Part shown: one piece after another, positions 2,691 through 19,420 of the stretch
Layout: the number at the start of each line of letters is the position of its first letter
Numbering within the stretch: the first letter of the stretch is position 1
Program-made: the position numbers and the translations under genes
Virus record (IMG/VR): IMGVR_UViG_2531839450_000009
DNA: 30,601 nucleotides
Direction: 5' to 3' (one strand)
Source: a virus
Lineage: Duplodnaviria > Heunggongvirae > Uroviricota > Caudoviricetes
The notes under the pieces: model-generated
Seen by the model: the letters and a program-made list of their open reading frames with translations, nothing else
Databases searched by the model: none
What the model was told of the DNA's origin: nothing

Positions 2691-3551
2691 TTATTCGGGG
2701 AGTTTCAGCTTTGGATTGCGAGAATGGACGATTACAAAACTTTCCCGGCCTTTCTTCTCAATTGAACAGTCGAGATAGCCGATTGTTTTAAGCTGTTCTA
2801 TCGCTTTCTTAATGATACGGTTTTGCTCGCCAACAGCTGACTGTAAAGCCAGGCGCTCACGGATTCGCGCGAACGATAGCGGCAACGGGTTCTGCGGAAG
2901 GCTTTCGATGAAAGTGTAAATGGCTTGTGCAGCTTCTTTCTTCGGAAGGGCACGCAAGGCGTGGTGTTGCAACAGAACGCGATAATCAAGCTGGAACAGC
3001 TCCCAGAGCTTCGAATCGGCCTCCAGCTCTATCAGATCAAGGTCAGCATCAAAACGCCCGACCTTCAGCAGACCAGTCTGATAGCCGCCTTTAGCATCTT
3101 TTCCGCGCTTAAAAGCGATACCCTTGTTACGCAAGCGTCCAAGTGATTCATGAATGGTTAAACGCAGTTTCGCATCCAGACGTTTTGAGGGGAAACCACA
3201 GGCTTTAGCGAACTCCTGAAACGATAACTGGATGGTGTTTGAAGACAAGCCGTATTTGCTGAACGCGTAGATGACACCGATCCACGTTTTGAAATCAGTA
3301 TCCATATCGAGTCGAGGACCGGTGATTTTAATATCATCGTAACCCTCGGCTTTAGCTATCTCCAGCTGGGAAAACGCTTTGGTAGCATCAATCTCTTTAC
3401 TTTCTCCTTTGCTCTTTGATGGCTTCGGCACGAATACCCCCAAGCGCATCAACGCTACAGGCTGCACAGTGTTGTTTGAATTAACTGTTAGTTCTTTTGC
3501 CTTACTTTCAATGTCTGCGTAAAGAATATCGGAGATAAATGATTGATTCAT
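2691..3551 (-). CDS. repA: RepA plasmid replication initiator
   Basis: ORF track, 286 aa, starting MNQSFISDILYADIESKAKELTV. Flanked upstream by five origin iterons and downstream by the incA array, the canonical P1 R-replicon layout. Confidence 0.9.
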   Translation of the reverse strand: MNQSFISDILYADIESKAKELTVNSNNTVQPVALMRLGVFVPKPSKSKGESKEIDATKAFSQLEIAKAEGYDDIKITGPRLDMDTDFKTWIGVIYAFSKYGLSSNTIQLSFQEFAKACGFPSKRLDAKLRLTIHESLGRLRNKGIAFKRGKDAKGGYQTGLLKVGRFDADLDLIELEADSKLWELFQLDYRVLLQHHALRALPKKEAAQAIYTFIESLPQNPLPLSFARIRERLALQSAVGEQNRIIKKAIEQLKTIGYLDCSIEKKGRESFVIVHSRNPKLKLPE

Positions 3552-3830: not shown

Positions 3831-3869
3831 GAAAAACCGGCCAACAAAGCCGGTTGGAAGGAAACCGTA

Positions 3870-4262
3870 TTATTCTACGCTTTCGATAAGAAGACCATGT
3901 TCATAACATTTAAGCTCATCGCCTTCATACAGGAATTGGTATCCAACACCACCACCTTCCAGAACATTAGGGAATAAATCATCACTTACCGAAGAACAAA
4001 TCACACCAATGCAGCGATCAACGCCTTCTCGTTCTTCAGTGCTGAAAAAATCCTCTTCAATAAGCACTTGATTACATTGCTCATCAGCATAAGTTGGAAA
4101 TACATGCTCGATACAATCTGGATGTTTTAAACCAAGCTGATCGGCAAGTTCGAAAGCATGACGGTATTGTTCAGATCCTGGCTTGCCAACAGTGATTTGC
4201 TCAATTTTATAGATTGAAGTCGCTTTGTTGATAGTTTGCTTAACTGTTACTTTATCAGACAT
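3870..4262 (-). CDS. hypothetical protein (130 aa), last gene of the minus-strand operon
   Basis: ORF track. Starts MSDKVTVKQ. Compact spacing with the upstream lipoprotein gene. No recognisable domain. Confidence 0.5.
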   Translation of the reverse strand: MSDKVTVKQTINKATSIYKIEQITVGKPGSEQYRHAFELADQLGLKHPDCIEHVFPTYADEQCNQVLIEEDFFSTEEREGVDRCIGVICSSVSDDLFPNVLEGGGVGYQFLYEGDELKCYEHGLLIESVE

Positions 4263-4273
4263 AAAAATCCCTT

Positions 4274-4606
4274 TTAGTTACCGCTGATAGCGCGGTTGTA
4301 ATCATTAACGTTGCGATTCTTCCTGTTAATCCCCATCAGCATCGTTTCTGTATCGAGGATATACGCTGGCAGATCATCAAAATATTCACTGCTAAACTCC
4401 GGCATCCTGCACATAAATGCACTTTTGGGGGCAGGGTGGTTAACCTTTGTCGGCGTCGGCGTTAAATTCGCTGATCGACTCCCGGAGCAACCGCTGAGTG
4501 TCAGCAGGAATGCGCTGGCGAACATTACCCGCCGCAACCAGTTGTTTCTGAACTTCTGCTTTTCGTTCCATTTGCCTGTCAGCATACTTGGCTTGCTCTG
4601 ATTCAT
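4274..4606 (-). CDS. lipoprotein precursor; o-spanin-like architecture
   Basis: ORF track. Hydrophobic stretch MFASAFLLTL followed by lipobox LSGC, then a Pro/Thr-containing mature region. Start may be M1 (4606) or the internal Met at 4525. The 5' part overlaps the 3' end of the preceding gene in another frame. Confidence 0.55.
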   Translation of the reverse strand: MNQSKPSMLTGKWNEKQKFRNNWLRRVMFASAFLLTLSGCSGSRSANLTPTPTKVNHPAPKSAFMCRMPEFSSEYFDDLPAYILDTETMLMGINRKNRNVNDYNRAISGN

Positions 4607-4862
4607 TTTTCACTTCCTGGCTGTGAAAATGTTGATCTGCTTTGTTCATCGTCTCAATGGTCTGGTTAAGATCCATTATTGACTTATCACGTTCCTTAAC
4701 AGCCTGATCAAGACTGCCAATTTTCTCGATGGCTTGCTTTAGCTGATGACGTTCCCATGCAAACCCAGCACCAACAAGTGCGCAAATCAGAACAAGAACA
4801 CCAGTAGCAGCAAGTTTCTCCTTCAAAGACAAAGCTGTTTTTAACGTAGAAAAGAATGACAT
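4440..4862 (-). CDS. N-terminal single-TM, coiled-coil periplasmic protein; i-spanin-like architecture
   Basis: ORF track frame 4440..4889. Preferred start is the Met at 4862 (MSFFSTLKTALSLKEKLAATGVLVLICALVGAGFAW) with a GGAGG Shine-Dalgarno 5 nt upstream. TM helix then a charged helical region. Its 3' end overlaps the lipoprotein gene. Confidence 0.55.
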   Translation of the reverse strand: MSFFSTLKTALSLKEKLAATGVLVLICALVGAGFAWERHQLKQAIEKIGSLDQAVKERDKSIMDLNQTIETMNKADQHFHSQEVKNESEQAKYADRQMERKAEVQKQLVAAGNVRQRIPADTQRLLRESISEFNADADKG

Positions 4863-4901
4863 GTCTTCCTCCTGAAGAAAAATTATCAATGAAGTCCTTT
4901 G

Positions 4902-5690
4902 TTACTGTGCCGCTTTGTTTAATTCATCAAGAACAGAATCAGGAACCAAAGCAGCAACTGCGCTGGCTGTGCTGGCCTTATTTGCTGATGCTTCCGCAAG
5001 CGCAGTACCGATAGCATGGTTATAAGCAGTTATGGCTACATTGGCGCTTTCATTCGCTCGTTCATACTGCTGTTGTAACGCAGTTGTGGGCGCTGTTGTC
5101 TGGTTGAAAACAACCCCAAACTGTTCAGTTGCTACTTTCAGAGATTCAATTTGCTCTTCTGTTAGTGCTGGTGGGGGAGTGGCAGTGCCGCCGCCTGAAC
5201 CAGAGCCTGACGAGCTTCCTGAGCCAGTGTTAAGGGTCTGGTTAATCTCCCCCATAGCAGCGATTAAACTTGATGTATTAAGCGCGTTTACAGCGTCCTC
5301 AAGCGATTTAGTAATAGTCACATCACCAATGGCAATAGAGATCGGCAGTTCTGATACTTCTCGCTCATTAGCACGGCAGTAAACATCCCAACCAATATCG
5401 AGTTGAAGCAGCATTGACAGATCTGCATAACCAGCCAACAGGTCCGCGTGCTTAGTTGCCAGTTCGACAATGTTCGTTAAGCCGGTTGTGGTTGTTCTGA
5501 TCGTTGAAACATAGCTGGTAATAGTGTCGGGATAGACAATTGTATCCAGAATTAATCCGGTCAATTCTTCTGCAAGCAGTTTTGCTGTGTTAGCACTGTT
5601 TCGTGCCGATGTTATGGCACCAGGTGTTTTCATCCCACCGGCGGCGGCCAATTTTTTATATGCGGATAACTGGTAGTCTTTTTCCAGCAT
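4902..5690 (-). CDS. hypothetical two-domain protein with Gly/Ser-rich linker (263 aa)
   Basis: ORF track frame 4902..5747. Preferred start MLEKDYQ at 5690 with AGGAG Shine-Dalgarno, avoiding overlap with the PAAR-like gene. Central linker GSGSSSGSGSGGG. No domain recognised. Confidence 0.5.
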   Translation of the reverse strand: MLEKDYQLSAYKKLAAAGGMKTPGAITSARNSANTAKLLAEELTGLILDTIVYPDTITSYVSTIRTTTTGLTNIVELATKHADLLAGYADLSMLLQLDIGWDVYCRANEREVSELPISIAIGDVTITKSLEDAVNALNTSSLIAAMGEINQTLNTGSGSSSGSGSGGGTATPPPALTEEQIESLKVATEQFGVVFNQTTAPTTALQQQYERANESANVAITAYNHAIGTALAEASANKASTASAVAALVPDSVLDELNKAAQ

Positions 5691-5698
5691 GATATCTC

Positions 5699-5983
5699 CT
5701 AACTTACCTGAACCAGGCCGTCTCCGGACGCTACGGTAGATCCGCATGAAACAGGGTCACCAACGCATACGATCCCTTTACCATTGACGGTAAACCATGC
5801 CCTGGTTGATATAGCTTGCCCACCGTGCGTACTGTTTCCATCGGTATGCTGTGCATATTGCTTACCATCAACTAACACTTCGACTCCGTTGACTTTAAGT
5901 AGTGGTTCACTCTCTACAGGAGGCCTAGATGGGAATCCTCCGTGCCCCGAACAAATGCTGTCTTTTGTTGCAATACTTGCCAC
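5699..5983 (-). CDS. PAAR-like small Cys/His/Gly-rich protein (possible spike-tip protein)
   Basis: ORF track, 94 aa. Motifs ICSGHGG, HTDGNSTHGG and VCVGDPVSCGS resemble PAAR / T4 gp5.4-like repeats. Assignment from motif resemblance only. Confidence 0.4.
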   Translation of the reverse strand: MASIATKDSICSGHGGFPSRPPVESEPLLKVNGVEVLVDGKQYAQHTDGNSTHGGQAISTRAWFTVNGKGIVCVGDPVSCGSTVASGDGLVQVS

Positions 5984-6064
5984 GTCATCACCAATTATTT
6001 GCTCTGATTTTCGTTATTTTAACTCAGGTTGTTTGTGGTCTACATGGAGTTCAACTATTGCAAA

Positions 6065-6081
6065 ATTGCTCTAATAAATAT
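6065..6081 (+). promoter_or_regulatory. C1 repressor operator-like 17-mer
   Basis: attgctctaataaatat matches 15-16 of 17 positions of the P1 C1 operator consensus ATTGCTCTAATAAATTT as I recall it. A TTGCAA -35-like hexamer lies just upstream. Sits between the divergent minus-strand operon and the RdgC/dmt operon. Confidence 0.55.
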
Positions 6082-6152
6082 TGTTTTTTATGTCGTATTT
6101 TCGGTACCATTCAGCCATCGCCCTTCAATGGGCATTTGTTTGGAGTCGTCAG

Positions 6153-6437
6153 ATGCAGATGGAGCTAATAAGCCGCAAAGAGTTCGATAGCCGTGTAACC
6201 AGCGGTGAACTCGACAACTTGCAGGCTATCAAGGTGAAAGAAGGCTTTTGCCTCATTGGGAATCAGAGCGGAACAAATCGCGTTTTTATGCTTCGCCGTA
6301 CGGATTTGAAGCCATTTGTCTGGAAGAACGAAATTGGTCCCAGCTCATACGCTCAAACGAGGGGGTGCCACAACCTGGCCTTTTTCTACAAAGACGAGCT
6401 TTCTGTGGTTGATATTCAAGGGTTACAACATGTTTAA
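6153..6437 (+). CDS. hypothetical small protein upstream of, and translationally coupled to, the rdgC homolog
   Basis: ORF track frame 6081..6437. Preferred start ATG 6153 ([11 protein letters not shown]) with GGAG 7 nt upstream. Its stop overlaps the hrdC start in the sequence ATGTTTAA. Confidence 0.45.
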
Positions 6438-14522: not shown

Positions 14523-17669
<3,147 letters not shown>

Positions 17670-19274: not shown

Positions 19275-19420
19275 AGTCAGCCTGCCAGAAATAGATGATG
19301 GTGATTCTACCGCTAGTCATTTGTTGAATATTTAACTCAATAAAAGAAAATTATTAGTGCAATTTTGATTGTGAAATGTATCATTCTGCCCTTAAGTAGG
19401 TTCTTCACGAGGAAACAAAA

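Follow-up and report, generated by a model that had tools for sequence, protein, structure and literature searches.

Two tail-tip proteins, a predicted spanin pair and the small protein UpfA encoded by the late upfC-upfB-ppfA-mlp-upfA operon of a P1-like phage-plasmid

Five co-oriented open reading frames occupy positions 3870-5983 on the minus strand of the window, by which we mean the whole 30,601-nucleotide stretch of viral DNA that was analyzed, and we are highly confident that they belong to a P1-like phage-plasmid (Punavirus), in which they make up the previously described upfC-upfB-ppfA-mlp-upfA late operon. There is similarly little doubt about the composition of this operon, which would bring together two dispensable tail-tip proteins, the predicted spanin pair of P1 and the small UpfA protein. 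All five frames were found exactly where the sequence-only reading had placed them, and in the same order, which is as follows in the direction of transcription:

Positions 5699-5983, minus strand: upfC, 94 aa with a GTG start, encoding a spike-tip protein with the T4 gp5.4/PAAR fold
Positions 4902-5690, minus strand: upfB, 262 aa, encoding an acidic protein with two predicted domains and a Gly/Ser-rich linker between them
Positions 4440-4862, minus strand: ppfA, 140 aa with an AGGAGG Shine-Dalgarno sequence, encoding a predicted i-spanin (type II inner-membrane protein)
Positions 4274-4606, minus strand: mlp, 110 aa, encoding a predicted o-spanin (putative precursor of an outer-membrane lipoprotein)
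Positions 3870-4262, minus strand: upfA, 130 aa, encoding an acidic (pI 4.5) and soluble protein; last gene of the operon

Over this stretch, the DNA is 95-97% identical to that of phage P1, and P1 records carry upfA, mlp, ppfA, upfB and upfC annotations at the matching positions. At the protein level, identity to P1 reached 93/94 residues for UpfC, 238/262 for UpfB, 139/140 for PpfA, 107/110 for Mlp and 122/130 for UpfA. The same stretch was matched by 23 phage records and by 723 PLSDB plasmids, and the diverged, P1-like Cronobacter phage JK004 was found to keep all five genes (48-78% protein identity), together with the overlapping 110-aa frame, its lipobox (LSAC) and an ATG located behind an AGGAGG Shine-Dalgarno sequence. 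These phage and plasmid matches and the conservation in JK004 rule out a chance set of open reading frames or a chance overlapping frame. Compared with the P1/P7 operon (NC_005856 62950-65063, as the locus is annotated in that record of Lobocka 2004), gene order, gene lengths, overlap and terminator are the same, and so are the oriR/repA and uhr-hrdC-dmt flanks; the two differ by point differences only, with UpfB being the most diverged protein (91% identity) and the other proteins reaching up to 99%. Rather than the single accessory lysis or envelope module that had been suggested, the locus is then a composite late operon made of tail-tip parts, predicted spanins and upfA. It is an ordinary operon, its last gene upfA excepted, and a CRISPRi study classified all five P1 genes as non-essential (PMC10695390). 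Searches of the PADLOC defence models gave no match for UpfA, UpfB or UpfC, and PDB sequence searches with UpfB, PpfA, Mlp and UpfA returned nothing significant. As a side observation, mlp and upfC are mis-annotated in many public records, where they appear truncated or as "hypothetical".

The 94-aa protein had been described as PAAR-like from its sequence, and this description holds. UpfC is identical at 93 of its 94 residues to PDB entry 9VYI_A, which is the solved P1 UpfC (E 2e-60); it also matches the T4 gp5.4 chains 5IV5/4KU0 at E ~1e-7 and PHROG 281 at E 2e-30, and its H14, H46, H53 and C80 residues are identical in the alignment to the homologue 9F4B_BA. A cryo-EM study of P1 published in 2026 placed UpfC on the spike tip and found it similar in structure to gp5.4/PAAR proteins (PMC12810830), and plaques were still formed when upfC was deleted (PMC9024508). 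As a monomer with a gp5.4/PAAR-fold cone, UpfC would sharpen and cap the tip of the gp5 spike trimer, in the same way as T4 gp5.4 and the PAAR proteins of type VI secretion systems (T6SS), which are small conical beta proteins capping a trimeric beta-helical spike and whose His/Cys positions are conserved in UpfC. Unlike in T4, where gene 5.4 adjoins gene 5, upfC lies ~8.5 kb away from the P1 spike gene 5, which is found within the window at 14523-15155. Two other differences with T4 are that P1 gp5 has no lysozyme domain and that UpfC bears an additional appendage, the UpfB tripod, none being described for T4.

The next protein had been read as a 263-aa two-domain "linker protein". The two predicted domains remain, but the protein counts 262 aa and its role as a generic linker has to give way to that of a tail-tip component: in the 2026 cryo-EM study, a trimeric UpfB "tripod" (three trimers) was assigned to the tail tip on the basis of an AlphaFold3 model fitted into a medium-resolution map (PMC12810830). 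UpfB trimers would thus attach to the spike tip, forming a tripod that P1 can do without for plaque formation, with upfB being non-essential (PMC10695390). The ATG that we retained, at position 5690, is located 8 nt past the upfC stop and has an AGGAG Shine-Dalgarno sequence upstream, whereas the mechanically called open reading frame and the P1 annotation use a start farther upstream, at 5747, giving 281 aa. Since PHROG 1559 matches this long frame (E 8e-138) over residues 20-281 only and since the JK004 orthologue begins with MLEKDYQ as does the 262-aa form, we favour the shorter protein. Pfam and NCBIfam searches with UpfB, like those of the PDB, gave no match. An LC-MS/MS study of the P1 virion makes no mention of UpfB, PpfA, Mlp or UpfA in its main text (PMC9024508).

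The two following genes are predicted to encode the only two-component spanin of P1, belonging to the overlapped class. That a transmembrane coiled-coil protein and an overlapping lipoprotein may form an i-/o-spanin pair had been proposed from the sequence, and several comparisons now point in that direction: PpfA matches PHROG 89 ("Rz-like spanin") at E 1e-24, Mlp matches PHROG 30284 at E 2e-76 and PHROG 456 at 4e-5, and Mlp also resembles the o-spanin LysC of phage P2 (37% identity over 68 aa, E 4e-8, with a conserved C-x-M-P motif). The pair was named as the P1 spanins before (PMC9025707) and its first prediction is credited to Summer 2007 in Bednarek 2022; P1 is listed as having an overlapped two-component spanin in the supplement of Kongari 2018, whose tables give P1 gp064, identical to PpfA at 139 of 140 residues, as an overlapped i-spanin. 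To call these spanins "accessory", as had been done, does not fit with PpfA/Mlp being the only pair predicted in P1.

Features of the PpfA sequence are consistent with an i-spanin. A hydrophobic segment spans residues 17-35 (mean Kyte-Doolittle score of 2.35), following a Lys-rich N-terminus (K8, K14 and K16), and no second hydrophobic segment was found in the 140 aa. The single-sequence AlphaFold2 model consists of two helices (4-116 and 120-138) that are interrupted at Pro118, with a mean pLDDT of 80; because its pTM is just 0.38, it was used for secondary structure only. The sole cysteine of PpfA, C27, is inside the transmembrane segment, so that the predicted periplasmic domain contains none. 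Periplasmic cysteines used for covalent homodimers are a lambda-type trait and do not define spanins in general.

The mlp gene begins inside ppfA in another frame, its ATG being located 256 nt (1 mod 3) past that of ppfA, and it runs past the ppfA stop after an overlap of 167 nt. Its product displays an L-S-G-C lipobox with Cys40 and a Ser at position +2 (no Asp), and LipoP places the cleavage of the 97%-identical P1 Mlp at residue 39 (Kongari 2018 supplement). The corresponding 39-residue signal peptide is atypically long and was flagged as "too long" by Kongari 2018. When compared with the JK004 protein, 54/72 residues are identical in the mature part and 7/23 in the N-terminal extension, and the one cysteine of mature Mlp (C66) is kept in JK004 and in P2 LysC. 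An internal start at Met28 was considered and rejected: this Met is absent in JK004, and an upstream ATG with a good Shine-Dalgarno sequence is present in both genomes, the JK004 one being shifted by one codon relative to this DNA.

By analogy with lambda Rz/Rz1 and P2 LysB/LysC, PpfA would be anchored in the inner membrane by its N-terminal transmembrane helix, with its long helical domain reaching into the periplasm, and Mlp would be exported and, after lipidation on Cys40, delivered to the outer membrane. The two proteins would then form a periplasm-spanning complex and, after the peptidoglycan has been degraded through the action of the holin LydA and of the SAR endolysin Lyz, this complex would fuse the inner and outer membranes to finish lysis. 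The arrangement is shared with P2, with an o-spanin gene that starts inside the i-spanin gene and runs past its end and with proteins of similar sizes (141/96 aa in P2 and 140/110 aa here). Mlp is homologous to LysC, both sharing a proline-rich stretch in addition to the C-x-M-P motif, whereas no BLASTP alignment was obtained between PpfA and LysB. The LysB equivalog TIGR03495 scored 17.9 bits with PpfA (far under its cut-off of 92.75), and the LysC equivalog of NCBIfam likewise stayed under its cut-off. Lambda Rz/Rz1 shows the same predicted topology, pairing a small outer-membrane lipoprotein, made from another frame of the same DNA, with a type II protein of the inner membrane whose periplasmic domain is helical (Kongari 2018). 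In contrast to the overlapped ppfA/mlp genes, however, Rz1 is fully embedded in Rz; periplasmic cysteines are present in lambda Rz and not in PpfA, and no sequence homology connects PpfA/Mlp to the lambda-type families (phrog_13/3198).

The genomic setting is another difference with P2, where LysB/LysC belong to a lysis cassette and come after the holin Y, the endolysin K and lysA. Adjacency to a lysis cassette is typical of spanins without defining them. Here, the pair is unlinked to holin or endolysin genes, none of which adjoins it, and it follows tail-tip genes; its neighbours are upfB, upfA and oriR. The sequence-only reading had judged this position next to the plasmid origin to be odd: the location stands but the oddness does not, considering that the lysis genes of P1 are known to be scattered over several operons and that spanins located apart from the holin and endolysin genes are a peculiarity of this phage (PMC9025707).

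In published RNA-seq data from P1vir, all five genes had a log fold change of 4.1-5.6 at 10 min, which had risen to 10.5-11.2 at 30 min (Table S1, PMC8201110). The structural genes 22, 23, sit and S displayed the same kinetics, whereas the early neighbours uhr, hrdC and dmt were already at 8.6-9.4 at 10 min (PMC8201110). The operon would thus be transcribed late, ending at an intrinsic terminator before oriR. P1 late promoters of the Lpa type consist of a 9-bp -22 box (consensus AAGTGACTT), 4 nt and a TANNNT -10 element. Five annotated P1 late promoters were used to build a weight matrix, which recovered LP26 (18.3) and LPpmgL (14.8) in the window, but nothing above 6.6 on the minus strand at 5990-6330, upstream of upfC. 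A pattern search with the LPlyz sequence gave chance-level matches only. Two elements were noted at the borders of the operon:

Positions 5994-6022, minus strand: weak candidate sigma-70-like promoter (TTAAAA-17-AATAAT, 9/12 positions)
Positions 3835-3855, minus strand: intrinsic terminator with an 8-bp stem (5 G-C; AACCGGC...GCCGGTT) followed by TTTTC

The sigma-70-like site is the only candidate upstream of upfC; such sites occur at chance frequency in the region, and the P1 version of its -10 element is AATCAT, while JK004 does not keep the element. The terminator is located 15 nt past the upfA stop, with TTATCCAC boxes (the DnaA boxes of oriR) directly after it.

Two other readings of the tail-tip and spanin genes were weighed against these data. 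The first builds on the effector-delivery remnant proposed from the sequence and holds that the PAAR-like gene was captured from a T6SS or from another effector-delivery system, drawing on weak matches of UpfC to T6SS-related PAAR models and proteins: 36.3 bits with the T6SS equivalog NF033420, 26.4 bits with the Pfam PAAR_motif PF05488 (gathering score of 27) and E 4e-4 with the Vibrio PAAR protein 4JIV. The NF033420 score is far under the cut-off of 124 bits, which sets UpfC apart from the PAAR proteins of T6SS. No genes for a T6SS or for effectors are located nearby, the window contains the partner spike gene 5, and the nearly identical P1 protein is built into the virion spike map (PMC12810830); this virion structure effectively refutes an effector-delivery origin, which we regard as extremely improbable, and UpfC would cap the phage's own gp5 spike instead. 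The other reading holds that PpfA/Mlp are spanin-like proteins with a different envelope role, such as superinfection exclusion or membrane passage at entry together with UpfC and UpfB, and that P1 finishes lysis without spanins. It would fit with the co-transcription of the pair with tail-tip components rather than with holin and endolysin genes, with the absence of periplasmic cysteines from the i-spanin, with the length of the lipoprotein signal peptide and with the spanin activity of the pair being a prediction made from sequence (PMC9025707). The lack of a plaque defect upon CRISPRi knock-down could also be taken in its favour, but non-essentiality is expected from ppfA and mlp in any case because phages can generally do without their spanins in shaken cultures or under standard plating conditions (PMC9025707). 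Moreover, Mlp is homologous to a P2 o-spanin, both proteins score strongly on spanin PHROGs, no alternative spanin candidate is known in P1, and the main text of the virion proteome study names neither protein. We thus consider a different envelope role to be quite unlikely and retain PpfA/Mlp as the predicted P1 spanins.

UpfA stands somewhat apart from its operon. Its gene starts 11 nt past the mlp stop, here as in P1 and JK004, and its sequence contains no membrane or export signal. A BFVD fold search returned only the uncharacterised Gp63 of a Klebsiella phage, and no match came from viral_contigs when two distant homologues of UpfA were used as queries. UpfA also bears a weak resemblance to Dmd. 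The UpfA family is rare and its members are often located just after prophage lysis cassettes. A functional tie to the spanins or to lysis, for instance as a regulator or as a cytoplasmic partner, would account for this position, for the short distance to mlp and for late kinetics identical to those of the rest of the operon. It would also account for the homologues of four enterobacterial prophages, each of which comes immediately after a PHROG-confirmed spanin pair, although these loci came from one single query and a downstream minor-tail gene is common to the loci L012, L015, L025 and L011, so that they may represent one lineage. At least two families of spanin pairs that are unrelated to each other (phrog_13/3198 and phrog_214/456) are involved, and a fifth locus (L025) has its homologue 1.5 kb after a spanin gene. 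Other homologues are found elsewhere: one stands by itself on the opposite strand, next to a KilA-N gene, one adjoins RelB/ParE and another follows an Endonuclease_NS gene, while phiKO2 gp63 sits behind its own terminator. Accessory genes are commonly found in the slot after a lysis cassette, and the absence of membrane and export signals from UpfA also speaks against a tie to lysis. Altogether, we hold a lysis-related role to be unlikely, if somewhat less so than a different envelope role for PpfA/Mlp; UpfA is most likely an accessory ("moron"-like) product, a small acidic protein that would stay in the cytoplasm and whose gene would be a passenger in the slot after the spanins.

The locus is thus well known, with its genes annotated in P1 and its spanin pair catalogued in 2007 and 2018, and the structure of UpfC and the assignment of UpfB to the tail tip were published in 2026. 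It carries little weight as a discovery.

The genes around the operon, listed below together with its five members, are those of P1: the RepA gene with the plasmid origin oriR, the divergent uhr-hrdC-dmt genes and the spike and hub genes 5 and 6. As judged from sequence, these neighbours mark the window as that of a P1-like phage-plasmid.

2691-3551: P1 RepA gene, with oriR
3870-4262, minus strand: upfA
4274-4606, minus strand: mlp, predicted o-spanin lipoprotein
4440-4862, minus strand: ppfA, predicted i-spanin
4902-5690, minus strand: upfB, attributed to a tail-tip tripod
5699-5983, minus strand: upfC, spike tip
from about 6153, divergent from the operon: uhr-hrdC-dmt
14523-16164: P1 spike and hub genes 5 and 6

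The five minus-strand open reading frames that an earlier sequence-only reading had delimited are all present in the window, and they correspond to upfC, upfB, ppfA, mlp and upfA of the P1 record NC_005856, from which the operon departs by point substitutions only. P1 and P7 are 95-97% identical to the 3-kb stretch around the operon, 23 phage records match, and 723 PLSDB plasmids, nearly all from Escherichia and Salmonella, carry the operon. Of the five proteins, UpfB has diverged most from P1 (91% identity, against 94-99% for the other four). Its substitutions bunch at residues 67-80, 124-148 and 163-215, which would be consistent with a tail-tip appendage that faces the host and varies.

The genes are tightly packed: 8 nt separate the upfC stop from the upfB ATG (5690), 39 nt separate upfB from ppfA and 11 nt separate mlp from upfA, with Shine-Dalgarno sequences before upfB (AGGAG), ppfA (AGGAGG) and mlp (AGGAAG). 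The mlp gene starts within ppfA, one base off its frame; the two genes share 167 nt, and mlp continues for 166 nt beyond the ppfA stop. UpfB in its 262-aa form is what had been read as a 263-aa protein; P1 is annotated with a 281-aa open reading frame that runs into upfC, and the shorter start is supported by PHROG 1559 coverage, by its Shine-Dalgarno sequence and by the orthologue of JK004, a diverged P1-like Cronobacter phage. JK004 carries the five genes in unchanged order (protein identities: UpfC 78%, UpfB 58%, PpfA 59%, Mlp 63%, UpfA 48%) and keeps the overlapping frame, of 110 aa and with the lipobox LSAC; the five-gene arrangement is confirmed as real rather than a chance pattern.

The 94-aa product of upfC had been called PAAR-like, and rightly so: it is identical at 93 of 94 positions to chain A of PDB 9VYI, which is named UpfC, and it is homologous to T4 gp5.4 (E ~1e-7), a Vibrio PAAR protein being a more distant homologue. 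H14, H46, H53 and C80 are conserved. Since UpfC is homologous to gp5.4, scores 26.4 against Pfam PAAR, just below the gathering score of 27, and falls far below the cut-off of the T6SS PAAR equivalog, it is a gp5.4-type spike tip rather than a secretion-system PAAR. The idea of an effector-delivery remnant must be abandoned, because this spike tip is built into the P1 cryo-EM structure: the 2026 study modelled UpfC as a monomeric tip on the gp5 trimer and, by fitting an AlphaFold3 model to a map of medium resolution, attributed to UpfB the "three trimeric tripod" densities attached to this tip (PMC12810830). HHpred had predicted UpfC to be gp5.4-like in an earlier study, where deleting upfC was without effect on plaquing (PMC9024508). 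The separation of upfC from gene 5, which had seemed odd, is real and is the normal organization of P1.

The spanin-like call for the overlapping pair holds as a prediction. PpfA has a single strong hydrophobic segment (residues 17-35) behind a Lys-rich N-terminus and is predicted to be helical all along except for a break at Pro118; the lipobox of Mlp (LSGC, Cys40) is canonical and is followed by Ser at +2. The two proteins match PHROG Rz-like spanin families (E 1e-24 for PpfA, 2e-76 for Mlp). Mlp is homologous to the P2 o-spanin LysC (37% identity, E 4e-8), the alignment including a proline-rich stretch and a conserved C-x-M-P motif, and P2 LysB/LysC share the overlapped architecture of ppfA/mlp. 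BLAST found no similarity between PpfA and LysB; PpfA also falls below the TIGR03495 cut-off and has no periplasmic cysteine. Between the window and JK004, 54 of 72 residues are identical in mature Mlp and 7 of 23 in its N-terminal extension, a contrast compatible with genuine export and with selection on the mature part.

The Mlp signal (4490-4606, minus strand) has 39 residues, unusually long for a lipoprotein, and its N-terminal extension is poorly conserved. Kongari et al. 2018 called that of P1 "too long", yet reported a LipoP cleavage site at residue 39. In the window as in JK004, a good Shine-Dalgarno sequence precedes the mlp ATG, which in JK004 is displaced by one codon; the internal Met28 is missing from JK004.

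The pair was already listed as an overlapped two-component spanin (P1 gp064/gp063) in the supplementary tables of Kongari et al. 2018, and several GenBank records name the genes Rz and Rz1. Bednarek et al. 2022 (PMC9025707) name ppfA and mlp as the P1 spanins, recognised from predicted features in work for which they cite Summer 2007, and describe their operon as unlinked to the other lysis genes of P1. The position away from a lysis cassette is therefore genuine and no puzzle, P1 lysis genes being known to be dispersed. CRISPRi knock-down of ppfA/mlp gave no plaque defect (PMC10695390), as expected because spanins are dispensable in standard laboratory conditions (PMC9025707). Annotations vary: the i- and o-spanin labels are swapped in the text of Bednarek et al. 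2022; RefSeq P1 (NC_005856) names mlp alone a spanin and leaves ppfA as 'PpfA'; MH422554 calls Rz1 in a 46-aa truncated form and has a 180-nt fragment where upfC belongs; and SJ46 (KU760857) labels its upfA orthologue 'UpfB'.

In P1vir RNA-seq (PMC8201110 Table S1), the P1 orthologues of all five genes climbed from log fold changes of 4.1-5.6 at 10 min to 10.5-11.2 at 30 min, in a pattern shared with genes known to be late (22, 23, sit, S, R, 5 and 6). The divergently oriented early genes uhr, hrdC and dmt had reached 8.6-9.4 by 10 min. The operon is followed, 15 nt past upfA and directly before the oriR DnaA boxes, by an intrinsic terminator with an 8-bp stem and a T run. A late-promoter matrix built from five annotated P1 examples (AAGTGACTT, 4 nt, TANNNT) recovered the back-to-back LP26/LPpmgL pair (19304-19332, both strands). 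Scanning the 169-bp upfC-uhr intergenic region and the adjacent uhr coding sequence (5984-6330, minus strand) with this matrix gave no convincing Lpa-type promoter (AAGTGACTT-N4-TANNNT) upstream of upfC: the top score there was 6.6, and 118 sites in the window score that high. The only sigma-70-like site there (6022-5994) is weak, of chance frequency and not conserved. Conservation across the intergenic region is confined to one block, at 6065-6081, where the C1 operator Op68 serves Pdmt on the opposite strand. Elsewhere, a further strong match (AAGTGACTGGTGATAACCT, score 15.3) lies at 17617-17599 (minus strand), inside the tail-gene cluster. The neighbouring uhr (6153-6437, plus strand) matches PHROG 2213 (E 8e-64); the first annotation of P1 listed it under 'unknown protein function', and RefSeq now calls it a nucleoside triphosphate pyrophosphohydrolase.

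UpfA is the only one of the five proteins without an assignment, with no match in Pfam, NCBIfam, PADLOC or PDB sequences. Only 43 proteins came up when 1.8 billion representatives were searched exhaustively with HMMER; about 15 of them are diverged, full-length (~128 aa) and conserve a C-terminal Y-Q-F-x-Y-x-G-D motif. A homologue lies 80-180 bp past a PHROG-confirmed lysis cassette in each of four prophages of enterobacteria (Klebsiella, Pantoea, Leminorella and Serratia), whose spanins come from two or more unrelated families, and at a fifth locus one is flanked by the lysis cassette and a minor-tail gene. Of the other homologues, one stands alone on the opposite strand beside a KilA-N gene, one adjoins a RelB/ParE pair, one follows an Endonuclease_NS gene and phiKO2 gp63 sits behind its own terminator. 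Most simply, upfA would be a mobile accessory gene with a frequent insertion site just past lysis genes; less probably, it may be functionally tied to lysis. Among the HMMER matches, a 1776-aa protein contains six repeated stretches ~30% identical to UpfA residues 4-92 (E 6e-11), which suggests that the N-terminal module also occurs in tandem copies within one very large protein.

Altogether, this locus is already known and its apparent puzzles are covered by published P1 biology; its residual value lies in the spanin function of the predicted pair, the missing late promoter and the UpfA family.
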